Assembly (NCBI RefSeq): GCF_058153355.1
Contig: NZ_CM177019.1
Direction: 5' to 3' (one strand)
Length of the DNA stretch: 64,000 nucleotides
Shown: positions 18,798 to 41,343 of the stretch, in pieces
Layout: every line of letters starts with the position of its first letter
Position numbering within the stretch: position 1 is the stretch's first letter
Position numbers and translations under genes: made by a program
Notes under the pieces: model-generated
Database searches by the model: none
What the model was told of the DNA's origin: nothing
What the model saw: only the letters and a program-made list of their open reading frames with translations

Positions 18798-20381
<1,584 letters not shown>

Positions 20382-20389
20382 CAGAAAAG

Positions 20390-20462
20390 AAAAAGGCCAC
20401 TCGTGAGTGGCCAAAATTTCATCTCTGAATTCAGGGATGATGATAACAAATGCGCGTCTTTC
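20390..20462 (-). ncRNA. micA: MicA (SraD) sigmaE-dependent sRNA
   Basis: Minus-strand sequence GAAAGACGCGCATTTGTTATCATCATCCCTGAATTCAGAGATGAAATTTTGGCCACTCACGAGTGGCCTTTTT matches MicA as I recall it; gshA-luxS intergenic, with terminator hairpin. Confidence 0.85.
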
Positions 20463-20530
20463 ATATACTCAGACTCGCCTGGGAAGAAAGAGTTCAGAAA
20501 ATTTTTAAAAAAATTACCGGAGGTGGCTAA

Positions 20531-21046
20531 ATGCCGTTGTTAGATAGCTTCACAGTCGATCATACCCGGATGGAAGCGCCTGCAGTTCGGGTGGCGAAAA
20601 CAATGAACACCCCGCATGGCGACGCAATCACCGTGTTCGATCTGCGCTTCTGCGTGCCGAACAAAGAAGTGATGCCAGAAAGAGGGATCCATACCCTGGA
20701 GCATCTGTTTGCTGGTTTTATGCGTAACCATCTGAACGGTAATGGCGTTGAGATTATCGATATCTCGCCAATGGGCTGCCGCACCGGTTTTTATATGAGT
20801 CTGATTGGTACGCCAGATGAGCAGCGTGTTGCTGATGCCTGGAAAGCGGCAATGGAAGACGTGCTGAAAGTGCAGGATCAGAATCAGATCCCGGAACTGA
20901 ACGTCTACCAGTGTGGTACTTATCAGATGCATTCGTTGCAGGAAGCGCAGGATATTGCGCGTAATATCCTGGAACGTGACGTACGCATCAACAGCAACGA
21001 AGAGTTGGCGCTGCCGAAAGAGAAGTTGCAGGAATTGCACATCTAG
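20531..21046 (+). CDS. luxS: S-ribosylhomocysteine lyase (AI-2 synthase)
   Basis: 171 aa; HTLEHL metal-binding motif. Confidence 0.96.
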
Positions 21047-21079
21047 TCAGTAAACTATCTTCACAATTAATTGAAAAAA

Positions 21080-21099
21080 GCCAGTTCAAATGAACTGGC
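21080..21099. terminator. Bidirectional terminator between luxS and emrB
   Basis: gccagttcaaatgaactggc hairpin flanked by A-run upstream and T-rich downstream. Confidence 0.65.
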
Positions 21100-21109
21100 T
21101 TAGTTGTAC

Positions 21110-23963: not shown

Positions 23964-24494
23964 TTAGCTCATCGCTTCGAGAACCACACCGTCTTGTTCC
24001 ATCTGGTCGAGACGGGAGAGCAATTTGCGGGTGATTTGCTCGAGCTGATCTTTTTCTGTTGTGCTGAGCGCGGACCAGAGTTGATGCAGGCAGTTATGCT
24101 GCGGTGGTAAAACCTCGCGCAAAAACTCGTGACCTTTTTCCGTTAATTGCAGATGCAGGCAGCGGCGATCGTTATCGCTTTCACGACGTTCGATCCAACC
24201 GCGTTTTTCCAGTTCATCGGCAATACGCGTCGCGTTGGTACGGGATGATCCAAGAGCACAACTCAATTCAGAAGGCTGAATACTGTGGTTTTCCTGAGAC
24301 TCCAGCGTAATCAACGCCATAAACAACGTCTCGTTAATCCCCTGAGCCTTCAGCATTTTATTGCGGTTCTCCAGCAGCTTGCTTTGCATGTGCATGCAAA
24401 GACGAGTCAGAAGGATCTCCTGATAAGGAAAATCTTCGTGGCGGCTGGCGCGAAATTTTAGCATTTGTTCAATGGGCGTAAACGAACTATCCAT
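23964..24494 (-). CDS. mprA: MarR-family repressor of emrAB
   Basis: 176 aa winged-helix MarR-type protein upstream of emrA. Confidence 0.92.
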
Positions 24495-24584
24495 TTGGGT
24501 ATGACCTCATTAATTTCAGCCGATATAGTAACGACAGTGACAAATAAAGTAAATGTATTGTTTTAGAAAAATGATTCTTGTGGG

Positions 24585-24920
24585 TTATATAATCGCCATC
24601 ACTTTCCAGGCGAGCCCATAGGCCAGCGCACTAAGCAGTGTTGGGATGATAATGCTGCGTGTTTTATAGAAACTGGCACCCAGTACCGCGAAGCCGACCA
24701 GAGTGGGCACGAAACGGCGTGTATCGTGCATCACTTCTGGTGCGGTAGAGACAACCAGCAGAGCGCATATCGAGGCGATGCCAATGGTGTCGAGCAAAAT
24801 ACCTACCGCGCCACGTTTGGTTGGGCGGGCATTACCCACACGCAGGCGCAGCGGCAAATAGCGGAAGCAATAATTCGCCGCGCCAACCAGTAACCCAAGC
24901 AGCAGAACCTCATAGCTCAT
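24585..24920 (-). CDS. ygaH: L-valine exporter subunit (AzlD-like)
   Basis: 111 aa hydrophobic; overlaps ygaZ stop. Confidence 0.88.
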
Positions 24921-25647
24921 CGGGCGCTCCTTGCCAGAATGCCTGGATTAACGCAGTGAGGCAGCCACAGACAATGCCTGCCAGAATGGCGACGGGAATA
25001 GAAAATAGCGTTACGCCTGCAAGGGCACCAACTAACGCTGCGGTAACGCAAAGAGATTGTTTGCGCTGGAAAGAGGCGAGCAGGAAACTCATAAAGAGTG
25101 CCGGAAGCATAAAACCTAATGCTGCTTCAACGGCGGGATATCCTTGCAGCAAGCCGCAGCCGGAGAATGCCCCTATTACCGTACCAAATACCCACGATGA
25201 CCATGAACTGAAGGCAATGCCGATCATCCAGTTCTCGCTCCAGCGGCGATTATTGCGTACCAGTTTTGCGGTTGCGGCGGCAAAAACCTCATCCGTCAGG
25301 CCAAACGCCCACAGGGCAGTTTTCGATTTTTGCAGACGCTGAATAATACGGCTACGCAGTGACGGGCCATACAAAACATGGCGAACATCCATTGCCATGA
25401 CGGTCAGTGCAGCAACCCACAAACTACTCCCGGCTGCCAGCATCGCGGTAATGACGAACTGGCTCGCGCCTGCATAAATGATGCAGGAGAAAAAAACGCT
25501 TTCGAGAGGAGAGAATCCCAGACGGGTCGCATTCAGACCGAACGCAAAGGCCACCGGAATATAACTAATAACAATCGGTAAACTGTCTTTGCATCCTTCC
25601 ATGAAGGTCGCCGAACCAGGAGCAGGCTGTGGAGTAGGGCTTTCCAT
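24910..25647 (-). CDS. ygaZ: L-valine exporter subunit (AzlC-like)
   Basis: 245 aa membrane protein. Confidence 0.88.
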
Positions 25648-25770
25648 AGAGTGTACGCTTAACGATTGTTAATATTATAAATAGACTGAATGAATATCTT
25701 AACCTTATCAGACTGATGGGCTTCTTAACACCCTTATAAGTGTAAAGCCACGAAAACGGTTGCTGATTGC

Positions 25771-26955
25771 TTAAATTGCGGCTTCCTGACGATGAAAACC
25801 TCGCCACCAGACCAGTAAGTTAACCAGGGCAATCGTCGCGCCAGCCAGACAAACGCCAGCCCAACCGCCATGTTGCCAGGCTGAGGCTGAAATTAGCGAA
25901 CCGGCGGCACCGCCAATGAAGTAGCTGGTCATGTAACCTGCGGTCAGGCGATTACGCGCATCAGGGTGTATTCGATAAATTACCGTCTGGTTAGTGATAT
26001 GCACGCCCTGCACGGTGAGATCCAGCACCAGGATGCCGATAATCAAGGCCAGTACGGAAGTGTGACCAAACCAGATCGCCAGCCATGAAAGTAACAGCAG
26101 CAGCAGGCCGAAAGTTGTGGTGAGGTGTGATTTGCCCTTATCGGCAAAACCGCCCGCCGGACGAGCGCCTAACGCTCCGGCAGCTCCCGCGAGTCCAAAC
26201 AGACCAATTACGCCATCGCTGTAATTAAAAGGCGGAGCGGCGAGCAAAAAGGCCATTGAGGTCCAGAGAATGCTGAAGTTGGCAAAGGTCAGGCAGCCCA
26301 GCAACGCGCGGGTGCGCAGAATTTTATCGCTGATAAACATGCTGAAAACGGAACCAAGCAACTGTGGGTAGTTGAGGTGGGTTTCTGATTTCATTTGTGG
26401 CAGACCACGCCATAATGCCAGCGCCATCAGTGCCATTAACACCGAGGCAACCCAAAAGACGGTGCGCCAGCCGCCGAGGTTTGCCAGCAAACCGGCAACG
26501 GTTCGTGCCAGCAAGATCCCCAACAGCAGCCCGCTCATAATGGTGCCGACCACTTTGCCGCGTTTGTCCGGTGAAGCCAGCGTCGCTGCCAGCGGAACCA
26601 GAATTTGTGCCACGACCGAGAATAGACCGGTTAATGCCGTACCGAGGATCATCATCGCCAGCGACTGACTGCTGGCGGTAATCAACATACCGCCCGCTGC
26701 CAGTAAGGTCATCGAGACAATCAGGCGGCGGCGTTCAAACATATCACCGAGGGGAACAAGAAACAGCAGACCTGCGGCATAGCCCAACTGCGCGGCGGTA
26801 ACAATAAAGCCCGCCGAACTGGCGGAAAGGGAAAAGTTACGCGCGATGGTGTCGAGTAATGGCTGGGCGTAATAGTTACTGGCTACCGCCAGACCGGTGG
26901 CGATAGACATCAGCACGATCAGTGCCGGGCTAAGCTCATGATTAGGTTTAGTCAT
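25771..26955 (-). CDS. ygaY: MFS transporter, apparently intact
   Basis: 394 aa uninterrupted 12-TMS-like ORF; synteny between ygaZ and proX. Confidence 0.8.
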   Translation of the reverse strand: MTKPNHELSPALIVLMSIATGLAVASNYYAQPLLDTIARNFSLSASSAGFIVTAAQLGYAAGLLFLVPLGDMFERRRLIVSMTLLAAGGMLITASSQSLAMMILGTALTGLFSVVAQILVPLAATLASPDKRGKVVGTIMSGLLLGILLARTVAGLLANLGGWRTVFWVASVLMALMALALWRGLPQMKSETHLNYPQLLGSVFSMFISDKILRTRALLGCLTFANFSILWTSMAFLLAAPPFNYSDGVIGLFGLAGAAGALGARPAGGFADKGKSHLTTTFGLLLLLLSWLAIWFGHTSVLALIIGILVLDLTVQGVHITNQTVIYRIHPDARNRLTAGYMTSYFIGGAAGSLISASAWQHGGWAGVCLAGATIALVNLLVWWRGFHRQEAAI

Positions 26956-27064
26956 TATTTTTATTCATCAGGTGATGATTAAGCTGGAAATCAATAATAG
27001 CGGATGTTGATGAATATGGGATGAAAGATAGATTGTTGAAATGTGCGGTGTGGTTTGTAGACAT

Positions 27065-27140
27065 GATAAGACGCGGCCGCGTCGCATCAGGCATTGTGTA
27101 CAGAGCGGCGGATAAGGCGAAAACGCCTTATCCGCCCGAA
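27065..27140. repeat. REP palindromic units between ygaY and proX
   Basis: gacgcggccgcgtcgcatcaggc and ggcggataaggcgaaaacgccttatccgcc inverted repeats. Confidence 0.5.
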
Positions 27141-27146
27141 TAAAAA

Positions 27147-28139
27147 TTACTTCTGCGCTGCCAGCGCCTCATTCACCCAGCCATCGAACTGCTGCTGGTG
27201 GGCTTTGATCCAACCATCAACGTGGCCCTGAATATCGCCTTCTGAGGCTTTGCCGTCATGCATAATGGCGTTCTGGGCGTTAATATCTGCCACTGGCAAC
27301 TGCATAATGGCAAACAGTTTCGCTGCCGCCGGGTTTTTCTCGGCCCAGGCTTTGTTGGCAACGATATGCATGGTGCTGACCGGGAAGCCATAATTCGCAC
27401 CATTCGGCAGTTTAGTGTCGGCGTTTTTATCGCCCGGCAGTGCGGAGAACGGCACCTGCAACCAGACGACATCTTTGCCCGGCTTCAGTTCGTTACTCAC
27501 CCAGTACGGCGTCCAGGTGTAGTAAAACACCGGCTTACCCTCTTTGTAACGACTGATGGTGTCAGCCATCATCGCTGCGTAGTTCCCCTGATTATGCGTC
27601 ACGGTATTGGTCAGTTCATACGCGGCAAGCTGGTGGTTGATCGCACCTTCGCAGCCCCAGCCTGGGTTACAGCCAGTCAAATCTGCTTTACCGTCGCCGT
27701 TGGTATCGAACAGTTTGGCGATCTTCGGATCTTTCAGTTGCGCGATGTTGGTGATTTTGTACTGGTCGGCGGTTTTCTTATCGATCAGGTAACCCTGTGC
27801 CGCGCCGTTAACGAATACCCCTTCACGATAAAATTTCTTATCGCCACCGGCAGCTTCGTACATGTTGTCATGCAGCGGCGTCCAGTTCACGGCGGTGAAG
27901 GTTGCATCGCCGGAAGCAAGTGAGGTGTAGCCAACGTTGTAATCCACTTCGCTGGGTTTATTGACGGTATAACCTAATTTCTCCAGTGCACGACTGACCA
28001 GCAGCGTCTGGAAGGTTTCTTCAGTGATGGTGCTCTGAACTGGATTAACAGTAATACCTTTGCCCGGCAGATCGGCAGCAAAAGTTTGTGTAGAGATAAG
28101 CGTGGCAAACGCTGTCGCAAAAAGTACGCTATGTCGCAT
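27147..28139 (-). CDS. proX: Glycine betaine/proline ABC transporter periplasmic binding protein
   Basis: Start at [21 protein letters not shown] signal peptide within ORF 27147..28181. Confidence 0.93.
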
Positions 28140-28196
28140 TGTTATTCCTTTTTTTGGCAGGGTGAAAATGCCCGGCGTCACCGGGCAAGTGCAGAG

Positions 28197-29261
28197 TTAC
28201 TTAATGAATGGGCGGGTCAGCAGACCGACAGGGCCAGTGGTGTACCAGCGACGGTTGCCGCGACTGCGTGAGTCGCGCCCAACGGCCTGCGTCAGGCGGT
28301 CGAGGATAATGGCGAGGATCACAATCCCGACGCCGCCAACGGTGGCAAGGCCCATATCCAGACGACCGATACCGCGAAGTACCATCTGACCCAGCCCACC
28401 GACGGCAATCATCGAGGCAATGACCACCATAGAAAGGGCCAGCATCAGCGTCTGGTTAACACCCGCCATAATGGTCGGCATCGCCAGCGGTAACTGAACT
28501 TTGAACAGCATCTGCCGCGGGCTGGCACCGAATGAGCGCGAGGCTTCAATCAGATCCGCCGGAACCTGGTTAATCCCCAGAATCGTCAGACGGATAATCG
28601 GCGGCAGAGCAAAGATGATCGTCACCACTACGCCCGGCACGTTACCGATACCAAACAGCATGACGATTGGCACCAGATAAACAAACGCTGGCGTGGTCTG
28701 CATGGCATCAAGCAGTGGACGAATAATTTTCGCCGCTCGTGGACTTCTCGCCAGCCAGATCCCCAACGGCAAACCGATGACGATACAGAACAGCAGGGCG
28801 GTTAATACCAGCGCCAGAGTAACCATTGCCTGCGACCATGCACCGATTGCGCCGATGGCAATCAGCGAAACCAGCGTCGCCACGCCCATTCCGACACCGG
28901 AAATTTGCCAGGCGATGAGAGCGAAAACGATAATCGCCACCGGCGCGGGCATACCCAGCAGCAATTGCTGGAAACCGTTAAGGATGTAATCGACCGGAAC
29001 GCGAACGCCCTGGAAGACGGGACGGAAATGGGTAACGACCCAGTCGATCCCTTCAGTGACCCAACTGTCGAGCGGGATCAGCGTTTTATGGAACGGATCG
29101 AGAATATTAAAATGCTCGACGTTTGGTGCAGGCGTACTGGTCAGCCAGTCAGCGCCACCGCCGTCAGTCGGTGCAGTCGCCGGTGTACCCCAGGCGTCTG
29201 CGGATTGTGCAGCACTGTCCGCCGCTGGCGTGGTATCCCACGGATTATTTTGATCAGCCAT
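28197..29261 (-). CDS. proW: Glycine betaine/proline ABC transporter permease
   Basis: 354 aa membrane protein; 8-bp overlap with proV. Confidence 0.93.
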
Positions 29262-30456
29262 TATTTACCCCCTCACGATCTAAAGCGCGCAGCAGCATTC
29301 CTTTCGAAATAATGCCGACATACTGTTGGTCCTCGTCGACCACGGGCACCGCACAGGGCGCTTGTCCGACATGAGAGAGCAACTCGCTAAGAGGCGTTTG
29401 CGCATCGACCGCTAATGGCGCGTCAATCAGCGCCGCATCAAGACCTTGCTGCTGCGTTAATGCGGTTTTAAGCGAATCGATAGACACTGCACCGACAAAT
29501 CTATTACCGCGTTCGATAACGTAGCCATATTCGCGGTCTTCATCCTGCAATAATTTCAATGCCGAACGCGGGCCGAAGCCGGGGGTTTTACGAATTAAGC
29601 CGTTCGGTGTACGACGGGCAATATCTTTTGCACTGAACACCTGGCTAATATCGACGCCACGGAAGAAGGTTCGGACATAATCATTCGCCGGATTATTGAG
29701 AATTTCATCCGGTGTGCCGACCTGCACCACTTCGCCATTTTGCATAATGGCAATTCGGTCGCCAATACGCATAGCTTCATCGAGATCGTGGGAAATAAAG
29801 ACAATGGTGCGCTGATGTTTCGCCTGTAATTTTACCAGCTCATCCTGCATCTCGGTGCGAATTAATGGATCAAGCGCCGAGAAGGCTTCGTCCATTAATA
29901 ATATATCCGGATTAATCGCTAACGCGCGGGCTAATCCCACACGTTGACGCATCCCGCCAGAGAGTTCATCCGGGTAGCTATGGGCATAATTTTCCAGCCC
30001 GACCTGACGCAGTGCATCAATGGCTTTTTCCCGGCGTTCTTCGGCATTAATTCCGGCCAATTCCATACCGAATGCAGTATTGTCCAGCACGGTCATATGC
30101 GGCATTAAGGCAAAGGACTGGAAGACCATCGCAATCTTTTTTCTGCGCACCTCACGGAGTTCGGCGTCGGATATTTTGGCAATATCCACACCATCAATCA
30201 GCACTTGCCCGCGGGTGGGTTCAATCAGGCGATTGAGAAGGCGTACCATTGTGGATTTACCCGAACCGGATAATCCCATGATGACAAATATCTCGCCTTC
30301 TTCAATGGCCAGACTGGCGTCTTTTACGCCAAGCGATAGCCCGGTTTTTTCCAGAATTTGTTCTTTTGAAAGTCCTTGTTCGATATATTTGAACGCTCGC
30401 TGAGGATGCTCGCCAAATATTTTATAAAGATTTTTAATTTCTAATTTAATTGCCAT
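29254..30456 (-). CDS. proV: Glycine betaine/proline ABC transporter ATPase with C-terminal CBS domains
   Basis: 400 aa; Walker [10 protein letters not shown], signature LSGGMRQR. Confidence 0.95.
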
Positions 30457-30811
30457 GCAATAGAAAGATTCCTGTTATTTGTTTATGTCGATACATTACC
30501 CAATGGAAATAGTCACTTTTTTCTACCCTAACATACTGAGAATCTGAGGCAACCCCTGATGGCAAATGTGGCATGAATATTGATGCGAGCAAATCGCCGG
30601 AATTTCCCATGATATAAGGGCTGAGAGCAAATCGAGAAAGTTGATATTTTTTTGTCATGGATAGCGAAAAAACGCCTGAATATTGTGGTTTCAGGCGAAT
30701 AATGCAACAGAGTATCAGTGTAGATCACCACAAAATATTTGCGTGATAAAAAGCTATTTGGCGGGAATTATTTCCCCTGCTGAAGTTGGTGAAATTTTGA
30801 AAAATAACCGG

Positions 30812-31780
<969 letters not shown>

Positions 31781-33925
31781 TTAAAGCGCGCAGGAAACGC
31801 AGCCTTCAATTTCAGTACCTTCCAGCGCCATCTGACGCAGGCGGATGTAGTAGAGCGTTTTGATACCTTTACGCCAGGCATAAATCTGCGCTTTGTTGAT
31901 ATCGCGAGTGGTGGCGGTATCGGGGAAAAACAGTGTCAGCGACAGCCCCTGATCGACATGGCGAGTCGCTTCGGCGTAGGTGTCGATGATCTTTTCTGCG
32001 CCGATTTCGTAAGCGTCCTGATACAGCGCCAGATTCTCGTTAGTCATAAACGGGGCAGGGTAGTAAACGCGTCCTGTTTTGCCTTCTTTGCGTATCTCTA
32101 CTTTCGCCACAATCGGATGAATACTCGACGTGGCATGGTTGATATAAGAGATGGAACCGGTTGGCGGCACCGCCTGAAGATTTTGGTTGTATATGCCATA
32201 GCGCATCACGTCGTCGCGCAGCTGCGCCCACATCTCACGGGTAGGTAACGTAATACCGCTGCGGGCAAACAGTTCGCCAACTTTCGCCGTTTTCGGCTGC
32301 CAGTTCCCTTGCAGATATTGGCTGAAATATTCACCATTGGCATAGCGTGACTGTTTGAACCCGGCGAAGGTTTCACTGCGTTCGCGCGCCAGCAACATCG
32401 AGGTACGCAGTGCGTGCCAGGTGATGGTATAGAAATAGAGATTGGTGAAATCCAGTGCTTCCGGCGAACCATAGGCGATGCCTTCTCGCGCCAGATAACC
32501 GTGTAAATTCATCTGCCCCAGACCGATAGCGTGTGAGGCGGCATTTCCGGCTTCGATGGACGGCACGCTGCGAATATGACTCATATCTGACACCGCAGTT
32601 AAACCGCGCACGGCAGTCTCTACCGTGCGGGCAAAGTCGGGGGAATCCATGGTGTGGGCAATATTCAACGAACCTAAATTGCAGGAAATATCATGGCCTG
32701 TGCGGGCATAGTCGAGATTCTCGTCATACTCTGAGGCGCTGTTAACCTGCAAAATTTCTGAGCAGAGATTGCTCATATTTATGCGCCCGGCGATAGGGTT
32801 AGCACGGTTAACCGTGTCTTCATACATGATGTAGGGATAGCCGGACTCAAACTGGATTTCTGCCAGTCGCTGGAAGAAATCACGGGCGTTGATGTATTTT
32901 TTGCGGATTCGCTCATCGGCAACCAGTTCGTCATAGTGTTCACTGATGGCGATATCGGCAAACGGCTTGCCATAAACACGCTCAATGTCATAGGGCGAAA
33001 ACAGTGCCATCTGTGCATTCTCTTTTGCCAGATGGAAGGTGATATCCGGGATAACCACGCCCAGCGACAGTGTTTTAATGCGGATTTTCTCGTCGGCATT
33101 TTCCCGCTTTGTATCGAGAAAACGCAGAATATCGGGATGATGGGCATGTAAATAGACTGCGCCAGCACCCTGACGCGCGCCGAGCTGGTTGGCATAGGAA
33201 AATGCGTCCTCCAGCATTTTCATCACCGGAATCACGCCAGAAGATTGATTTTCAATACGTTTAATTGGCGCGCCCGCTTCCCGCAGATTCGACAGCAAAA
33301 ATGCCACGCCGCCGCCGCGTTTCGACAGTTGTAGTGCGGAATTTACTGCCCGGCCAATCGACTCCATATTGTCTTCAATACGCAGCAAAAAACAGGAAAC
33401 CAGTTCGCCACGCTGCTGTTTACCGCAGTTGAGGAATGTCGGTGTTGCAGGCTGAAAGCGTCCTGACAGCATCTCATCGGTCAGTTGCGTCGCCAGTGTT
33501 TCATCGCCTTGTGCCAGCGTCAGCGCCACCATCGTGACTCGATCGGCAAAATCTTCCAGATAACGCTTACCGTCGAATGTCTTCAACGTATAGCTGGTGT
33601 AAAACTTCCATGCTCCGAGGAATGTCTGAAAACGAAAACCGCTGGCGTGTGCGTGGGCAAACAGTGTAATGACAAAATCGCGAGAGTAGCGGTTGAGGAC
33701 GTTTTCATCATAGTAACCTTCGTTGACCAGCCAGTTCAGGCGCTGCTGCTGGCTACTGAAGGTCACACTGTTCGGGCGTACATGCGTCGCCATAAAGGCG
33801 TCAACGGCCTGGCGATCTTTATCGAACTGAATGCGACCTGCGCTATCGTAAAGGTTAAGCATCGCATTCAGAGCGTGGTAATCCATCGTTTCCTGCGTCA
33901 GGCGTTCTGCGGTTGTCGTTGCCAA
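31781..33925 (-). CDS. nrdE: Class Ib ribonucleotide reductase alpha subunit
   Basis: 714 aa; C-terminal CxxC; operon context. Confidence 0.95.
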
Positions 33926-34308
33926 AATTCGGTTACTCCTTTACGAACGTTTTCGATATCGCTTTGCGTACCCATGAGTTCAAAGCGGTACAGCCACGGC
34001 ACGCCGCATTTCCGGGCTATCACATCTCCGGCGCGGCCATACGCCTCACCAAAGTTGCGATTACCCGAAGCAATAACGCCGCGAAGCAACGCCCGGTTGT
34101 GCTCGTCGTTTAAAAAGCGAATTACCTGTCGTGGCACCGCGCCAGCCGTACCGCCGCCGCCGTAAGAGGGCACGATCAGGATGTAAGGCTCGTCTACCTG
34201 AATCCGTTCCCGCTCATTGAGCGGGATGCGCACCGCGGGCAGTCCTAAACGTTCGATAAAACGCTGCGTATTTTCGGAGCTGCTGGAAAAGTAGACGAGT
34301 TGGCTCAT
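33898..34308 (-). CDS. nrdI: Flavodoxin-like NrdI
   Basis: 136 aa; overlaps nrdE start and nrdH stop. Confidence 0.92.
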
Positions 34309-34550
34309 GCACTGGCCGCGTGTGGCGCTGGATGCAGACGATTGATCATGTCCGGGCGGAAACCAGACCAGCTAAGATCGCCTGCAATCACTACCGGCAA
34401 CTGACGAAAGCCCTGCGCACGTAACGCTTCCGCCGCTTCAGGAACGCGATCGACATTAATCATTTCAAAATCAAAGCCCCGGTTTTCCATCGCCCGTTTG
34501 GTGGCGTGGCACTGAACGCAATCGTTACGAGTGTAAATAGTAATGCGCAT
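34305..34550 (-). CDS. nrdH: Glutaredoxin-like NrdH redoxin
   Basis: 81 aa with CVQC active site. Confidence 0.93.
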
Positions 34551-34653
34551 GATTCGTATTTCCGTTTAAAATGAAGATACGGCGCGATGATACGCGTCGG
34601 GTTGTCTCTCTGTTGATACAGAGATACTAGATGTAGTTGAAAAAAGATTCAAC

Positions 34654-34667
34654 CACACAATATATAG
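34654..34667. promoter_or_regulatory. Possible NrdR-box-like element upstream of nrdH
   Basis: acacaatatatagc roughly 100 bp upstream of nrdH; resembles the NrdR box consensus only loosely. Confidence 0.3.
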
Positions 34668-34796
34668 CAAATAGTGGTCGAAATTACCCTGGGTATGAGC
34701 GTGACGGGGTAGGGGGATTTTTGTGATTCACCAGACAAAAAGAAACCCCGAAATCAGGTTCCGGGGTCAAGACGCGTATTTATTATCATTGTTGCA

Positions 34797-35126
34797 CTAC
34801 GATTTGCGCATGCTTAACAGTGCGCCGATAAAAATACCTACCGCAGCTGCTGTACCCACGCTACACCAGGGTCTTTCACGAACAAAAGAATCCGCGCAGC
34901 CAACGGCATCGCGCGCGGCTTGCTGGACGCGAGTACGACCATGCATTCGCGCTCGGGTTTCTTTCAGTAGAGCCTGCGCTTTACTACGAGCGGCTTCGGC
35001 TTCCCCTTTGGCGTCGCTGCCCCAGGACTTCAATACAGACTCGAGACTGTCAGCCAATTGATTGACATCATTCTGGATATCCTGCACGCCATCATCGACG
35101 TCGTTGCGGTTCGGTCGGTTAAACAT
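34797..35126 (-). CDS. ygaM: ElaB/YqjD/DUF883 family ribosome-associated membrane-anchored protein
   Basis: Start at MFNRPNRNDVDD within ORF 34797..35138; C-terminal TM anchor. Confidence 0.85.
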   Translation of the reverse strand: MFNRPNRNDVDDGVQDIQNDVNQLADSLESVLKSWGSDAKGEAEAARSKAQALLKETRARMHGRTRVQQAARDAVGCADSFVRERPWCSVGTAAAVGIFIGALLSMRKS

Positions 35127-35277
35127 ATGATCCCCCATTAGAATTCGATGTAATTTTCAGTGTAGACCATAATTTTCTTAACTGAGGTTCATCGCGGCTT
35201 TATGGACTTTTCTGAAAGCGTTGTGAATGCGCAATCAGGTAAGGTAGGCCCGCGGTTGATAATAACGAGGATCAAAT

Positions 35278-35622
35278 ATGTATTTACGACCAGACGAGGT
35301 GGCGCGCGTACTTGAAAAAGTCGGTTTTACTGTCGATGTGGTAACTCAGAAAGCGTATGGTTACCGCCGTGGGGAAAATTATGTCTATGTTAATCGCGAA
35401 GCGCGAATGGGACGTACCGCTCTGGTAATTCATCCAACATTAAAAGAACGCAGTTCAACACTGGCTGAACCCGCTTCCGATATTAAAACTTGCGATCATT
35501 ACCAGCAATTTCCGCTCTATTTAGCGGGTGAACGTCATGAGCATTACGGTATCCCACATGGCTTTAGTTCGCGTGTTGCGCTTGAACGTTATTTGAATGG
35601 TTTATTTGGCGAAGCCAGTTAA
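35278..35622 (+). CDS. ygaC: Uncharacterized protein YgaC (DUF2002)
   Basis: 114 aa ORF; synteny between ygaM and alaE. Confidence 0.8.
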
Positions 35623-35658
35623 AGACGCGACTGGCGATGCCAGTCGCGAAAAGAAGGG

Positions 35659-36108
35659 TCAGGCTTTTACCTGCTGGTAACGGCTGACTTTGAACAGTCG
35701 GCGGCAATAATCGAGGAAGTAGCCATAAACCGCCCCCATCAACATCGAAACAACGATGTTTGAACTGACCGCCGCCATAATCTGGTGCCAGTCTGCGCCC
35801 ACCACTAACAAGATCGCCACATACACCGGTGACTGGAACGTTACATACGCCAGGATATCTGCCAGATTTTTTACCCAGCCCGACGTGCTAACTTTGCGTG
35901 CCGCGCGCATAAACAGATCGCGGTACATACCGTATGGCCATGCAATTAAGATGTTCACCGGAATCGCTACCAATCTGGAATAAATAGACTGTTCGAAGCT
36001 CATTCCGGAGAGGAAAACTTCAATACACATGTTCACGACAGAACAGTAAACAACCATCGCGAACGTATCTGCAACTGCATGACGCAAGCGTGACTGCGGT
36101 GAGAACAT
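35659..36108 (-). CDS. alaE: L-alanine exporter
   Basis: 149 aa hydrophobic protein. Confidence 0.85.
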
Positions 36109-36774
36109 GCTAATGCTCCTTAATAAAAGCGTAATGGGACATTAATAGAGATGAAAGCAGTGGATCTCATTGCCATCTGCATTTTCGCATAGCGTATATC
36201 GCTGGCTATGACTAATCAATTAGTGAAAAATTTTTATTTAATCTGTTTTTGTAGATAAAATATTCCGTAGCGGCGCGTTTTTTGTACGTTGTGGATTTTT
36301 ACGTGCCGATATACTTAATTTTCAATTAAATCAAATATATATGCATGTGACTTTATTTTCGCTAATGGAGGTTTGGGAGGAGGTTACGCCATAAGCGTAG
36401 AGAATTCGGTGAATGTAATGATTTGGTCATTTTCAGCATTTTTTATGCCAGATAATGCACAATGCCAGCAGAAAACACCAGTGAGATATACTTTTTACTA
36501 TTCAGTTTGATTGCATTTTTATTCATTTTTGTTTTGTTGGGCTTGAGGGGGGTGGTGAGCGGCGAGCGCCGGTCTGTTCATCGATAACCGAAATTACTCA
36601 TCAAAATGGCTAATATATAATCTTGAAATTATTCTGCGTGTCTCAGAAAATAACAGCTGAAATAATCTCATGAAGGACTGTAAATAGATTAAATTTTGTG
36701 GAAATATAATAAGTGATCGCTTACACTACGCGACGAAATACTTTTTGTTTTGGCGTTAAAAGGTTTCCTTTATT

Positions 36775-37179
36775 ATGTCCGTAATGTTACAAAGTCTAAA
36801 TAACATTCGCACTCTCCGTGCGATGGCTCGCGAATTCTCCATTGACGTTCTTGAAGAAATGCTCGAAAAATTCAGGGTTGTCACTAAAGAAAGACGTGAA
36901 GAAGAAGCACAGCAGCAGCGTGAATTGGCAGAGCGCCAGGAAAAAATTAGTACCTGGCTGGAGCTGATGAAAGCTGACGGAATTAACCCGGAAGAGTTAT
37001 TGGGTAATAGCTCTGCTGCTGCACCACGCGCTGGTAAAAAACGCCAGCCGCGTCCGGCGAAATATAAATTCACCGATGTTAACGGTGAAACTAAAACCTG
37101 GACCGGTCAGGGCCGTACACCGAAGCCAATCGCTCAGGCGCTGGCAGAAGGTAAATCTCTCGACGATTTCCTGATCTAA
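36775..37179 (+). CDS. stpA: H-NS paralog DNA-binding protein StpA
   Basis: 134 aa; N-terminal coiled coil and C-terminal [12 protein letters not shown]-binding motif; long AT-rich upstream region. Confidence 0.95.
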
Positions 37180-37225
37180 TTACTGAGGCCGGATGTCGCT
37201 GCTATGGCGCGTCCGGCGTCGCTTC

Positions 37226-37750
37226 TCAAGCTTGTTGGTTCCACGGCATCTTATCTAACAACCTTGCCATCCCACAAAAACCGCTAATTCCTGCAAACAG
37301 TAACCCGGCACCAACAAAGCCACTTAATAAGAAGAAACCACTATTTACGGTATAACCCAGTACAACGCCGATTAATATTAAACCACCCGCGGCGATCTGC
37401 ACCTGGCGCATTAACGGCAAGGGTTGAGACTTATTTACCGCAACTGGCAATCCTGCTTTTTTCCAGCCATCAATCCCATCTTCGAGTAAAAAGATTTCTG
37501 CGGGTGCGGCAATCGCTGCTAATTTATCGGCGTTATTACTGGTGCGTTTACCTGCCTGGCAGTGGAAGATAATTTGCTCACGACGTAATTTAGCCGGAAG
37601 ACCTGACTGTTCGAGCACAGATAATGGAGCCAAATCTGCTTCAGGAATATGTTCACGAAGATATTCATCAGCATCACGAATATCGATTAAATTTGCGCCG
37701 CGTGCGATTAATTCTTGTGCACCGTGCGGCGAAATGGTTGTCAAAGCCAT
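37226..37750 (-). CDS. ygaP: Rhodanese-domain thiosulfate sulfurtransferase, membrane-anchored
   Basis: 174 aa; rhodanese active site CQAGKRT; C-terminal TM helices. Confidence 0.88.
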
Positions 37751-37759
37751 AGTGACTCC

Positions 37760-38059
37760 TTACGGACAATAGACATTTTTCAGGGTGGCGATAATGGCAT
37801 TTACCGCCTCATTTTTAATGGAATATAGAATGCGTTGGGCATCCCGTTGGCTGTCGATAAGCCCTTCGTCCCGCATACGAGCGAGATGCTGTGATGTTGC
37901 AGAGGCACTTAGTCCGGTAATGCGCGTCAGCTCTCCCGCGCTGGTGCCGGGTGAACCGCTAAGCATGCACAGAATCAGCAACCGTTTGGGGTGGCTCATT
38001 GCTTTCAATAAGGCCGCTGCCTGTTCGGCACTGGCCTGTAATTGCGCGAGTTCAGTCAT
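37760..38059 (-). CDS. ygaV: ArsR/SmtB-family transcriptional regulator
   Basis: 99 aa winged-HTH; co-oriented with ygaP. Confidence 0.88.
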   Translation of the reverse strand: MTELAQLQASAEQAAALLKAMSHPKRLLILCMLSGSPGTSAGELTRITGLSASATSQHLARMRDEGLIDSQRDAQRILYSIKNEAVNAIIATLKNVYCP

Positions 38060-38241
38060 AGTTATTTAAGTATTCTCTAAATTAAGTAAACTCTAAACTA
38101 AAAATACAACATATGCCAGCATCAGCCGCGTAAATGAGAGTAAAAGCGTAAGCTGAAACTGGCAGGCTCCGCTAAAATTACTACGCTTAAGAGATAAAAT
38201 CTCTTTTTAAACAATGAGTAATTTTCTTATAGGGAGTACAT

Positions 38242-38400
38242 ATGGGTTTCTGGAGAATCGTCATCACCATCATTCTGCCGCCGCTCGGCGTGCTGCTCGG
38301 TAAAGGGTTCGGTTGGGCGTTCATTATTAATATTCTGCTGACACTGCTTGGGTATATCCCCGGTTTGATTCACGCGTTCTGGGTGCAAACCCGCGATTAA
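38242..38400 (+). CDS. yqaE: Pmp3/UPF0057-family small membrane proteolipid (52 aa)
   Basis: Hand-translated MGFWRIVITIILPPLGVLLGKGFGWAFIINILLTLLGYIPGLIHAFWVQTRD; GGGAG RBS upstream; below the ORF-track length cutoff. Confidence 0.85.
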   Translation: MGFWRIVITIILPPLGVLLGKGFGWAFIINILLTLLGYIPGLIHAFWVQTRD

Positions 38401-38483
38401 ACCTGTCCTCACCCCCGCGGCGTTAACGCGCCGCGTTCCTCTGCTACACTTTCTGAGTGTTTCCGTTAACGAATGAGGTAGCT

Positions 38484-38933
38484 ATGGGTCTGTTCAATTT
38501 TGTGAAAGATGCCGGAGAAAAACTCTGGGACGCGGTTACAGGTCAGCACGATAAAGACGATCAGGCGAAGAAGGTGCAGGAGCATTTGAACAAAACCGGT
38601 ATACCTGATGCCGATAAAGTGAATATTCAAATTGCCGACGGCAAAGCGACGGTCACTGGTGACGGCTTAAGTCAGGAGGCGAAGGAGAAAATCCTTGTTG
38701 CGGTGGGGAATATTTCCGGTATTGCCAGTGTCGATGATCAGGTGAAAACGGCGACACCAGCCACTGCCAGCCAGTTTTATACCGTTAAGTCTGGCGACAC
38801 TCTGAGTGCCATTTCCAAACAGGTCTACGGTAACGCCAATCTGTACAATAAAATCTTCGAAGCGAATAAACCGATGCTAAAAAGCCCGGATAAAATTTAC
38901 CCGGGGCAAGTGTTGCGTATTCCTGAAGAGTAG
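38484..38933 (+). CDS. kbp: Potassium-binding protein (BON + LysM domains)
   Basis: Start at [14 protein letters not shown] within ORF 38457..38933; C-terminal Lys[15 protein letters not shown]. Confidence 0.9.
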
Positions 38934-39596
38934 TTAATTGCCAGCCATCGCCTGCTGGATAATGGGAATTGGCGTCAGTAAATGCTGGCGCATTAACTCA
39001 CTGGCGCGCGCGGTATCTCGCGCCAGTACCGCCGCAGTCAGGGTCTGGTGCTGATCGCGTTTATCCTCCAGCATTTCCACCGAAAGCACTGTTCGCCGCA
39101 GCCAGATAAATCGATAGCGCGCCGCCAGATCAAACAACCGTTCACGCATTTGCAGCAAATAGTGAGAACCACAGCCCGCCACAATTGCAGTATGAAACGC
39201 CTGATGACGCAGATCCCACTCATCAAGCATTTTCTCACTGGCGTCACAGGCCTCCAGCTTACTCAGCAGATGCGCTTTTGCGAGAACGTCTGCCTCCCAT
39301 TCATCGCCACCGCGGGCAATCGCCAGACTGACCAGCATCGCTTCCATATTGGCGCGGGCGTCGAAAATATCGAGCAGCTCCTGCTCTGACATAGACGTCA
39401 CCCGATACCCTTTTTGATTCACCACCGTGACCAGTCGTTCCGCCACCAGTTGCGAAAGGGCTTCCCGCAACGGCCCAACACCAAGAGCATAACGCGATGT
39501 CAGCACACTCATCCGTAATTTTTCATCCGGTTGAAAATTACCGCGAATAATATCGTTTTTCAGCCAGCGATAGCCATCCAGAGACGTAATGGTCAT
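38934..39596 (-). CDS. csiR: GntR-family regulator of csiD-lhgO-gabDTP
   Basis: Start at MTITSLDGYRWLKNDIIRG within ORF 38934..39614; FadR-type C-terminus. Confidence 0.9.
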   Translation of the reverse strand: MTITSLDGYRWLKNDIIRGNFQPDEKLRMSVLTSRYALGVGPLREALSQLVAERLVTVVNQKGYRVTSMSEQELLDIFDARANMEAMLVSLAIARGGDEWEADVLAKAHLLSKLEACDASEKMLDEWDLRHQAFHTAIVAGCGSHYLLQMRERLFDLAARYRFIWLRRTVLSVEMLEDKRDQHQTLTAAVLARDTARASELMRQHLLTPIPIIQQAMAGN

Positions 39597-39616
39597 GGTG
39601 TGACTCCTGATCATTA

Positions 39617-41017
39617 TTAGCGCGTATTATGAACGGGTGTTTTTTGCCACAATACCAGTTTTTTCCAGCGCGCCATAATTGGCACGGTACAGATAATCCC
39701 TATCGCTAATAAGCCAGTGGAGATCACTTCTAACTGTTGCGCCGGGCGGAATAGCATCACTACCAACACAAAGGTAATAAAGCCGATTACCAGCCAGGTG
39801 AGCCACGGATAAAGCCACATCCGCAGGCGAATTTCGCTTCCTTCTGCTCGCAGAATTTTGCGCATCCGCAATTGTGAAACGGCGATGACTAAATAAACCA
39901 GCAGGGCGATAGCGCCGGAGCTGTCGATCAGAAATTTAAACACTTTCGCCGGTGCGTAATAGTTCACCACCACCGTTAAAAACGCCGCGCCGGTGGAGAG
40001 TAACACCGCCACGTACGGGGTTTTACTGCGGTTAATTTTGCCCATTACCGCGGGTGCATCACCGCGACGGCTTAAGGAGTAGAGCATCCTTGACGCGGTA
40101 TACAGCGCCGAGTTCAGGCAACTGGTTACGGAAAGTAATATCACGCAGTCCATGATTAATTTCGCATGAGGAATATTGAGTAATTCCAGTACCGAGCGAT
40201 AAGAACCCACGGCTTTCAGCCCCGGCATATTCCACGGAATTAATGCCACGACGACAAAAATAGAACACAAATAGAATATAGAAATACGCCAGATAACCGA
40301 GTTGGTGGCGCGGACAATATGTTTTTCCGGCGTGTCGGATTCCGCGGCGGCAATGGTGACAATTTCTGCGCCCATAAACGAGAACATGGTGATCAACATC
40401 GCGCTTAATACCGCACCGAAGCCATTGGGCATAAAGCCGCCGCTATCCCACAATCTTGAGATCCCGCTCACTTCGGCATAAGGGTAAAAACCGCTAATTG
40501 CGACTGCACCAAGGAAAATAAAGGCCAGGATAGCGATGACTTTGCACAGCGCCAGCCAGAACTCAAATTCGCCGTAGTTTTTAACGCTTAATAAATTACT
40601 GCCAGTTAAGGCGAGGGTAATGACGAGGGAAAATAACCAGATGGGAATGCCTGGAACCCACGAGTGCAGGATCATGGCGGCGATGTTGGCTTCCAGCGGG
40701 ATAACCAATACCCAAAACCACCAGTACAGCCAGCCGATGGTATAACCCGCCCAACGGCCAATAGCTTTATCGGCATAGGTGGAAAACGAACCCGTGTCGG
40801 GCGTGGCAACCGCCATTTCCGCCAACATCCGCATAATCATAACCACCAGTAATCCGGCGAACAGATAGGCCAGTAATACCGCCGGGCCCGCTTCGGCGAT
40901 GGCGACGCTGGAACCGACAAACAGACTTGCGCCGATAACACCGGCAATAGACAACATGGTGACGTGGCGTGACTTCAGCCCGCCGCCTAACTCATGTGGT
41001 TGCGATGATTGCCCCAT
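39617..41017 (-). CDS. gabP: GABA permease (APC family)
   Basis: Start at MGQSSQPHELGGGLKSRHVTML within ORF 39617..41080; 12-TMS. Confidence 0.93.
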   Translation of the reverse strand: MGQSSQPHELGGGLKSRHVTMLSIAGVIGASLFVGSSVAIAEAGPAVLLAYLFAGLLVVMIMRMLAEMAVATPDTGSFSTYADKAIGRWAGYTIGWLYWWFWVLVIPLEANIAAMILHSWVPGIPIWLFSLVITLALTGSNLLSVKNYGEFEFWLALCKVIAILAFIFLGAVAISGFYPYAEVSGISRLWDSGGFMPNGFGAVLSAMLITMFSFMGAEIVTIAAAESDTPEKHIVRATNSVIWRISIFYLCSIFVVVALIPWNMPGLKAVGSYRSVLELLNIPHAKLIMDCVILLSVTSCLNSALYTASRMLYSLSRRGDAPAVMGKINRSKTPYVAVLLSTGAAFLTVVVNYYAPAKVFKFLIDSSGAIALLVYLVIAVSQLRMRKILRAEGSEIRLRMWLYPWLTWLVIGFITFVLVVMLFRPAQQLEVISTGLLAIGIICTVPIMARWKKLVLWQKTPVHNTR

Positions 41018-41104
41018 CCTGAATCCTCTCGAAAGTGTGACACTTGGGAGAGCGGCCCGACATTTCCCGCGTCGGGTCACGCGTTTAATTGTTATTGGTT
41101 CTTT

Positions 41105-41335
41105 TTGCCGGAGAGCGGCTCCGCCTTATCCGGCCGACATAGATTTATTCCTGTTCACGTACAGATTGTTGGATGCGGCGTAAACGCCTTATCCGACCTG
41201 GATTCTCGTAGGCCGGACAAGACGCGAAGCGTCGCCTCCGGCATGGTGCGCCGAATGTCGGATGCGGCGTAAACGCCTTATCCGACCTACATTTCCGTAG
41301 GCCGGACAAGACGCAAAGCGTCGCCTCCGGCATGG
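41105..41335. repeat. BIME: tandem REP elements between gabT and gabP
   Basis: Two near-identical ~60-bp units GGATGCGGCGTAAACGCCTTATCCGACCT...TAGGCCGGACAAGACGC(G/A)AAGCGTCGCCTCCGGCATG. Confidence 0.75.
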
Positions 41336-41343
41336 GTGCGGTG

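Follow-up and report, generated by a model that had tools for sequence, protein, structure and literature searches.

The ygaY gene, a pseudogene in Escherichia coli K-12, is intact in nearly all E. coli and may encode a stress-activated MFS exporter

In E. coli K-12 the ygaY locus routinely serves as a neutral integration site or for control deletions. Is the gene dead as a rule, or only there, and what would a living copy do? We took up this question with a stretch of 64,000 nucleotides (referred to here as the window), for which a first-pass annotation had proposed that the strain may retain a functional transporter. That ygaY is intact elsewhere and a pseudogene in K-12 is already known (RefSeq, EcoCyc, TCDB), and annotations of the intact form number in the thousands of genomes. 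What is added here concerns the conserved neighbours of the gene, proX and mprA, and a predicted ygaY promoter with a soxbox/marbox-like element at fixed spacing. The reading that we arrive at, with a probability of about 0.5, is that the functional ancestral ygaY allele encodes a proton-coupled exporter activated by SoxS/MarA/Rob. The features discussed below are collected in Table 1.

A single ORF exactly spans positions 25771..26955 on the minus strand, with an ATG start and 394 codons followed by a stop, and without interruption, just as the first-pass annotation had described it from the ORF listing. A scan for homologues in one genome per species gave 345 relatives, of which the best 80 were examined (80–98% identity, more than 25 genera of Enterobacteriaceae). 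Since the N terminus (MTKPNHEL...) and the length of 390–396 residues were kept in these 80 other species, the start codon and the reading frame are genuine, and neither chance nor faulty assembly accounts for the ORF.

Table 1. Positions in the window of ygaY, its neighbours and the elements described in the text.
Feature	Position	Strand	Remarks
ygaY CDS, intact	25771..26955	-	ORF listing, Pfam MFS_1, AF2, Foldseek, K-12 b2681 identity and synteny
7 bases deleted in K-12	26695..26701	-	GGCAGCG on the sense strand, nt 255-261 of the gene (codons ~86-87); MAFFT alignment
Putative ygaY -10 hexamer TATTAT	26994..26999	-	38 nt upstream of ATG; cross-genus alignment
Conserved upstream element ACCGCACATTTCAACAATC, soxbox/marbox-like	27031..27049	-	Forward orientation; conservation, spacing, consensus match
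REP/BIME-type element	27060..27137	-	proX-ygaY spacer; Rfam naRNA4, 59.8 bits vs gathering score 59.5
proX	27147..28139	-	Conserved upstream neighbour, same strand
ygaZH sigma-70 promoter TTAAGA-17-TATAAT	25674..25702	-	Promoter scan; in ygaY-ygaZ spacer
ygaZ	24910-25647	-	Downstream of ygaY
ygaH	24585-24920	-	Downstream of ygaY
mprA (emrR)	23964..24494	-	Conserved downstream neighbour in most genera

[quoted passage not shown] An AlphaFold2 (AF2) model, built with 82 homologues as input, had a pLDDT of 94.5 and a pTM of 0.92. It contained the 12 transmembrane helices of the superfamily, arranged as two bundles of six, along with one loop helix, and the hydropathy peaks agreed with it. When the model was compared with the PDB by Foldseek, it superposed on the 12-TM transporters SotB and MdfA with TM scores of 0.83–0.85. 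The earlier description of the product as 12-TMS-like is thus confirmed. MFS motif A (consensus G-x-L-a-D-r-x-G-r-k) lies in the TM2–TM3 loop, where YgaY has P68-L-G-D71-M-F-E-R-R-R77; in the 82 homologues P68 was invariant and L69, G70, and D71 were conserved to at least 90%. A second copy of the motif, G268-F-A-D272-K-G-K, is found in the TM8–TM9 loop.

The K-12 counterpart (b2681, formerly split into ygaX/b2680 and ygaY/b2681; UniProt P76628) is the same gene in the same order, proX-ygaY-ygaZ. In MG1655 (NC_000913.3) it is annotated as a pseudogene of 1178 bp, labelled ‘frameshifted’ by PGAP, so the status that the first-pass annotation had given to it is correct. The alignment with K-12 which that annotation had proposed was carried out with MAFFT, and it identified the lesion. 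The sole indel between the window gene and MG1655 b2681 is a deletion of 7 bp in K-12, past which codon 89 of the K-12 reading frame is a stop; in the window the 7 bases are present and the allele is full length. Hence, the K-12 locus is neither identical to that of the window nor intact. Two GGC triplets flank the deletion, leaving its exact position ambiguous by 3 nt, and an origin by slippage at microhomology would be consistent with this. With the gap excluded, the two genes are 96.5% identical at the nucleotide level. Beyond the indel the two genes differ by 41 substitutions, 38 synonymous and three nonsynonymous. The K-12 copy thus carries no sign of further decay, and from this its lesion looks recent. 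It may be noted that proVWX-ygaY is not a divergent recombinant block: the whole window is 94–98% identical to K-12, and the outlier in identity is instead a K-12-like patch covering ygaZ-ygaH-mprA.

To what extent the intact allele is the rule in E. coli was surveyed with a junction probe of 80 nt across the K-12 deletion, searched in 5,405 complete E. coli genomes, and with the span lengths of the CDS in a sample of 60 genomes. The exact K-12 junction (100% identity over 80 bp) occurred in 354 of the 5,405, while all the remaining genomes aligned over 87 bp and therefore have the 7 bases; 1,097 genomes matched the K-12 80-mer exactly save for the 7-bp gap, which also speaks for a recent lesion. 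Among the 60 junction carriers listed of the 354, all were K-12 or laboratory derivatives, including MG1655, C600, J53, DH5alpha, DH1, NCM3722, HMS174, and RR1. The early K-12 stock WG1 also has the deletion. When the CDS alone was used as the query against 60 evenly spread genomes, its span was 1185 bp in 56 and 1178 bp in three laboratory strains, and the one remaining genome (PCP06021) showed a large deletion reaching into ygaH. BL21(DE3) has an intact 1185-bp ygaY, and one full-length copy was found at the locus in 5,413 of 5,426 E. coli genomes. From the junction probe, the 60-genome sample and BL21(DE3), it is clear that an intact ygaY is close to universal, being present in ~93% of complete E. 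coli genomes, and that K-12 is the exception; its pseudogene is due to a single deletion of 7 bp that is restricted to K-12 and its laboratory lineage. The suggestion that this particular strain may retain the transporter gene was therefore right as far as the window goes, but it understated the case, since intactness is not specific to the strain and extends to all 80 of the species compared.

The order nrdEF-proVWX-ygaY-ygaZH-mprA-emrAB is common to the window, Citrobacter, and E. fergusonii. In the window proV and proW lie upstream of ygaY and emrA and emrB further downstream, all on the same strand, and the ygaZH insert (24585-25647) separates ygaY from mprA. Among the best 80 of the 345 relatives, 75 had sufficient flanking sequence to show the upstream gene, and in 72 of these it was proX, next to ygaY and on its strand; ygaZH followed ygaY in only 28 of 80, and in most genera mprA came directly after ygaY. 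The conserved neighbours are thus proX and mprA, not ygaZH. The first-pass annotation had placed the gene beside both ygaZH and the proU system (proVWX), which is true here, but the link to ygaZH is not a conserved one, and ygaZH has its own promoter. The sequence of that promoter, in the ygaY>ygaZ spacer, is that of a constitutive promoter mapped by Shimada et al. 2014 (PMC3946193), and the functional linkage of the ygaY transcription unit ends here on the downstream side. No regulator gene is adjacent to ygaY. The contexts of three homologues of 50–57% identity (P0124, P0125, and P0126) had nothing in common, and a further one (P0127) proved to be a chimeric metagenome contig. The neighbouring pseudogene ygaQ is broken in the window, where it falls into three ORF pieces, as well as in K-12 and in strain 2017-02-2CC.

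We then considered how ygaY may be transcribed. In a generic promoter and terminator scan neither a sigma-70 site ahead of ygaY nor an intrinsic terminator behind proX was found; a ygaY promoter became visible only through conservation between genera. In the window the proX-ygaY spacer occupies 26956-27146, and in K-12 it lies at about 2,808,125-2,808,315. It could be aligned across genera only at two blocks, one resembling a −10 hexamer and the other lying upstream of it, and both were found in 65 of 78 loci. The first reads (A/T)TyCG(Y)TATNAT, and G-Y-TATNAT ends 31–45 nt before the ATG across loci; in the window, transcription is predicted to start ~7 nt downstream of 26994. The presence of T-A-T-n-A-T in 65/65 loci is circular, as the search itself required TATNAT; the G two bases upstream of it was not required, and it occurred in 28 of 29 unique sequences. 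The upstream element reads AACCGCAC-RWWCCR-nCAC, i.e., AACCGCAC-N7-CAC, and in 63 of the 65 loci a distance of 42 ± 1 nt separates its GCAC from the −10 downstream. In the window GCAC is at 27043-27046 and the distance is 43 nt. The −35 position is poorly conserved or weak, as expected for an activator-dependent promoter. A sigma-54 reading of the GCAC element was ruled out, the obligatory GG being CG in most genera. Judged from this alignment, ygaY quite probably has a conserved promoter of its own with a predicted activator site.

The upstream element was compared with the soxbox/marbox consensus AYnGCACnnWnnRYYAAAY, which is confirmed in the literature. In the window it matches 12 of the 14 specified positions, a match to be expected by chance in a single sequence; in the 64 kb there were 11 matches with two mismatches against ~17 expected, so that the match in one sequence is not significant. 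The fit was then examined over 52 unique sites. Here GCAC was present in 52/52 because the search required it, and the other positions agreed as follows: A1 in 51 sites, Y2 in 48, W10 in 46, R13 in 49, Y15 in 52, A16 in 51, and Y19 in 46. A published paraquat time series bears on the same point. In MG1655, b2680 and b2681 fall in cluster 3 together with acrAB and tolC. Three clusters show SoxR-dependent induction, cluster 3 among them, and the three jointly hold 22 of 23 known SoxS targets (Blanchard et al. 2007). Genes proV, proW, proX, ygaZ, emrR, and emrA are not in the cluster tables of that study, which rules out proU read-through as the cause of the paraquat response. The main-text MarA/SoxS ChIP target lists that were searched do not include ygaY, and neither footprints nor ChIP peaks of SoxS, MarA, or Rob at its promoter came to light. 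Taken together, we put the chances of SoxS/MarA/Rob control at about even.

The element may instead bind some other regulator, for example one of the OmpR/PhoB type, in which case the paraquat response would be indirect. Its CAC repeats have a 10-bp periodicity that would suit tandem winged-helix binding, and at positions 17–18 (RE2) it departs from the soxbox, with CAC in most genera and CAA in Escherichia versus AAA. The geometry is also non-canonical: the forward orientation and a centre near −51 fit neither class I nor class II and resemble only the zwf exception. Moreover, the soxbox consensus is itself degenerate. Such a regulator is nevertheless unlikely, though it fares better than the other alternatives, as the match is position-specific at eight degenerate soxbox positions beyond GCAC, and as the induction is rapid, SoxR-dependent, and in a cluster with known direct targets. 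About half of the true SoxS/MarA/RamA targets in Salmonella violate the class rules too, which weakens the argument from geometry.

As for the transported substrate, the first-pass annotation had named none, and this agrees with what we found. No NCBIfam equivalog came near its cutoff for YgaY or for 81 homologues, and RefSeq names the protein and its relatives merely ‘MFS transporter’. A sequence search of the PDB gave only weak MFS matches (SotB over its full length, E = 1e-5), and a search of the literature on ygaY/b2681 found no functional study, transport assay, or mutant phenotype for YgaY orthologues. In TCDB, as quoted in PMC5417439, E. coli YgaY (P76628) is entry 2.A.1.36.3 of the YnfM family, its function being given as ‘Unknown’. 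We checked this placement by comparison with YnfM itself, in addition to the TCDB assignment: in BLASTP, E. coli YnfM aligned with YgaY over its full length with 26% identity (409 columns, E = 7e-21). Several conserved positions are candidate binding or coupling residues, namely the nearly invariant R151 (TM5) and N322, the conserved D312/H319 stretch in TM10, and the Y28-x2-Q31-P-L motif in TM1.

YnfM is a proton-dependent exporter of glutarate and other dicarboxylates, and it is reported to be the sole glutarate exporter in BL21(DE3), where deletion of ynfM alone abolished the export. Because this loss occurred in a strain with an intact ygaY, it is unlikely that YgaY provides redundant glutarate export under those conditions, and glutarate, the substrate suggested by analogy with YnfM, is probably not what it carries. 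More probably it carries a stress metabolite or some small organic xenobiotic. Considering its structural neighbours, the precedent of YnfM and the co-regulation with acrAB-tolC, we lean toward proton-coupled transport in the outward direction.

Neither substrate nor direction is uniform in the YnfM family, as a member from Salmonella is claimed to import copper while YnfM exports glutarate. We hold it to be rather improbable that YgaY works by import or symport, with a nutrient, a metal, or a solute related to osmoprotectants as its substrate. The MFS fold and the sequence leave the direction of transport unfixed. The reported copper importer, CuiT, is the Salmonella orthologue of YnfM and sits in the same TCDB family, and ygaY adjoins an uptake system, proVWX. 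In addition, the N-terminal half of YgaY scored best against the aromatic acid/H+ symporter model TIGR00895, at 77 bits, which is far below the cutoff. On the other hand, the closest structural neighbours of YgaY are exporters and E. coli YnfM itself exports, and the SoxR-controlled co-clustering with acrAB/tolC suits efflux better than uptake. Nor were any catabolic or utilisation genes linked to ygaY in the 80 loci (best 80 of 345) or to its distant homologues. We therefore keep to export as the preferred direction.

A third possibility is that ygaY is an appendage of proU, which would owe most of its expression during osmotic stress to transcripts running on from proVWX and would serve osmoadaptation, for instance by release or recapture of compatible solutes. 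The conserved same-strand adjacency of proX and ygaY is in its favour. Studies in K-12 have described a partial osmotic read-through into ygaY, to which the rise of its transcript after salt shock was ascribed, and have also reported that H-NS bridges the proU DRE to ygaY. In wild-type K-12, however, ygaY expression is largely insulated from proU, and a REP element along with a reported terminator or insulation lies between proX and ygaY. This REP/BIME-type element, probably the 3′ end of proU or an insulator region, is variable in length between strains, with matches beginning at query position 15 or 103, and the proX-ygaY region is 100 bp longer in H15, H23, and H26. Its naRNA4 match was the only one to appear when Rfam was searched for riboswitches and other RNA elements upstream of ygaY. 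Against the appendage there are also the conserved −10 and upstream element that ygaY has to itself, and the paraquat response of ygaXY, which proceeds without proVWX. We regard this reading as improbable, more so than import.

The 394-residue proteins are 99% identical in E. coli/Shigella, 98% in E. marmotae, 97–98% in E. fergusonii, 96% in E. albertii, and ~94% in Citrobacter, and across more than 25 genera the identity is 80–93% (best 80 of 345 relatives). Among these 80 loci the frame was intact in every one, with 390–396 codons. The dN/dS ratio of ygaY (Nei–Gojobori) came to 0.026 in the comparison with K-12, 0.078 with E. fergusonii, and 0.045 with Citrobacter, with a dS of ~1.0 in the last case, and these ratios could not be distinguished from those of proVWX, ygaZ, ygaH, and mprA. 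By these measures ygaY is under strong purifying selection and a maintained gene, as both the ratios of 0.03–0.08 and the intact frames indicate. That the ORF is intact merely by chance or recent history and the gene, like its K-12 counterpart, silent or cryptic, a reading for which the poor Shine–Dalgarno sequence might be cited, is extremely improbable given such ratios over a dS of up to 1.0, the intact frame in 80/80 species (best 80 of 345) and ~93% of E. coli, and the contrast with ygaQ next door. Hence, ygaY is almost certainly an intact, selected, functional gene with a lesion specific to K-12.

The SoxS/MarA/Rob-activated exporter would then work as follows. Transcription of the gene would begin at a promoter of its own, ~40 nt ahead of the ATG, in which a conserved soxbox/marbox-like activator site would stand just upstream of a weak −35. 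Under redox or xenobiotic stress SoxS, and probably also MarA, Rob, and RamA, would switch ygaY on alongside acrAB-tolC. YgaY would go through the usual alternating-access cycle of the MFS, driven by the proton gradient, most likely in the direction of export.

We suggest only tentatively, and with the odds somewhat against it, the fuller statement that YgaY is an MFS efflux pump of the SoxS/MarA/Rob(/RamA) regulon, carried by virtually every natural E. coli and by most Enterobacteriaceae, which has been overlooked because its K-12 copy is dead. If it is such a pump, the oversight would follow from the fact that K-12, the Keio collection, the EcoCyc-centred regulon maps, and most inventories of efflux pumps rest on the dead copy. 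Wild and clinical isolates would in that case hold one stress-inducible exporter that the model strain lacks, and their tolerance to xenobiotics or antibiotics might be affected. Screens based on K-12 or Keio strains are blind to YgaY, while BL21 and nearly all natural isolates have copies capable of expression. The conserved soxbox-like promoter and the SoxR-dependent induction published for K-12 suggest a concrete, inexpensive hypothesis by which the substrate might be found.

Among known systems, YnfM (E. coli/Corynebacterium glutamicum; TCDB 2.A.1.36.1, the ‘acriflavin-sensitivity (YnfM) family’) is in the same TCDB family as YgaY. The two share the TM5 arginine (R151 in YgaY), a TM10 histidine, and the 12-TM MFS fold. 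At 26% identity YnfM is a paralogue of YgaY and not its orthologue, and unlike ygaY, which lacks an adjacent regulator, it is paired with a divergent LysR regulator, YnfL.

In the Foldseek search of the PDB, the YgaY model came closest in structure to the DHA1 exporters SotB (6KKK/6KKL), MdfA (4ZP0, 6EUQ), and NorA (8TTE), with TM scores of 0.80–0.85 and rmsd values of 2.4–4.4 Å over ~380–394 aligned columns, at a sequence identity of 14–18%. The DHA1 drug:H+ antiporters, which form TCDB family 2.A.1.2, carry motif C, G-x3-G-P-x2-G-G, in TM5. YgaY has G133-KVV-G137-TIMS-G142-LLL-G146-ILLA-R151 in this helix, without the GP..GG (by regular expression and inspection), and on inspection it also lacks the motif-B arginine in TM4. 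The DHA1 models for Bcr/CflA, EmrD, SotB-like PRK03545, and Cmx/CmrA gave at best 48–63 bits against cutoffs of 200–479, and the same held for the 81 homologues. The structural likeness, taken from a predicted model, thus supports the view that YgaY may work like a DHA1 exporter, not that it is a member of that group.

With the efflux genes of the mar/sox/rob system, acrAB and tolC, b2680-b2681 share their SoxR-dependent paraquat-induction cluster. The ygaY element, like the non-canonical soxbox of the zwf type, is in forward orientation close to the −35, and it differs from the mar/sox/rob sites in RE2, where these have AAA and it has CAC or CAA.

Synonymous divergence was compared between the window (24585-30456) and the corresponding locus of E. 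fergusonii (L006, GCA_018018155.1; 1501-7372). For proV, proW, proX and ygaY, dS was just 0.10-0.17, a level found within E. coli, whereas for ygaZ and ygaH it was 0.86-1.03. This difference suggests that the proVWX-ygaY block moved by inter-species transfer and that the breakpoint lies in the ygaY-ygaZ spacer.

When the genes across the window were compared with those of K-12, about 94-98% identity was observed, apart from ygaZ, ygaH and mprA. The dS values of these three genes against K-12 were 0.01-0.02, compared with a background of ~0.12. The K-12-like patch that they form, ~1.7 kb in length, ends in the ygaY-ygaZ spacer on one side and in the mprA-emrA spacer on the other, and was presumably imported by recombination.

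Window features and identity of selected genes to K-12
Feature	Window coordinates (strand)	Identity to K-12	Remark
recA		98.8%	
alaS		98.0%	
nrdE		95.2%	
gabT		94.2%	
ygaZ		99.2%	exception to window background
ygaH		99.1%	exception to window background
mprA		99.8%	exception to window background
K-12-like patch	23964-25647		mprA, ygaH, ygaZ
luxS-emrB spacer	~21049-21109		
REP/BIME element	27060-27137 (-)		proX-ygaY spacer
ygaQ	46709-48962 (-)		alpha-amylase family

The gene order next to ygaY was also examined in 80 species-representative loci of Enterobacteriaceae (L018-L097, the best 80 of 345 relatives). The ygaZH pair, which encodes the AzlCD-type valine exporter, separated ygaY from mprA in only 28 of these, and mprA-emrAB followed ygaY directly in ~50. 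Therefore, ygaZH either represents an insertion at this site that is restricted to certain lineages or has undergone repeated loss. On the other side of ygaY, the proX-ygaY spacer is length-polymorphic across E. coli strains: in some of them its alignment begins only at query position 15 or 103, and BL21, among others, carries ~100 bp extra. The REP/BIME element in this spacer matched the Rfam family naRNA4 with 59.8 bits (gathering score, 59.5).

No close match to the window was found among the complete E. coli genomes in RefSeq when positions 2146-48170 and 30500-50500 were compared, the best 20-kb match being 98.0%. The sole close match for ygaY was strain 2017-02-2CC (NZ_AP027764; 99.7%), which is about 98.3% identical to the window overall. 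The window derives from an Escherichia coli lineage that is either rare or mosaic. It may be noted that strain 2017-02-2CC carries, between luxS and emrB, a ~2.1-kb insert (L017, its locus, 19085-20902) holding a frameshifted AAA-ATPase gene and an RNA-ligase-family gene; this insert is absent from the luxS-emrB spacer of the window and from K-12. In E. fergusonii, an RNA-ligase-family gene is likewise present after emrB.

In the seawater isolate PCP06021 (NZ_CM129877.1, hit H140 of the search of complete E. coli genomes), a deletion has taken out most of ygaY and ygaZ, leaving the first 158 nt of ygaY fused to ygaH; this loss is an independent event. A predicted protein of 596 aa (P0001), from an ENA metagenome contig of 5.4 kb, scored 1096 bits against YgaY at 73% identity. 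This exceeds the self-score of YgaY (827 bits), which suggests either that part of the sequence is duplicated in tandem or that the assembly produced an artefact.

The ygaQ gene of the window is broken, and its three ORF pieces are 267, 277 and 196 aa long. In K-12, ygaQ is a pseudogene too, and in strain 2017-02-2CC it is flagged 'internal stop'. Unlike ygaY, ygaQ is a decaying gene common to several lineages.
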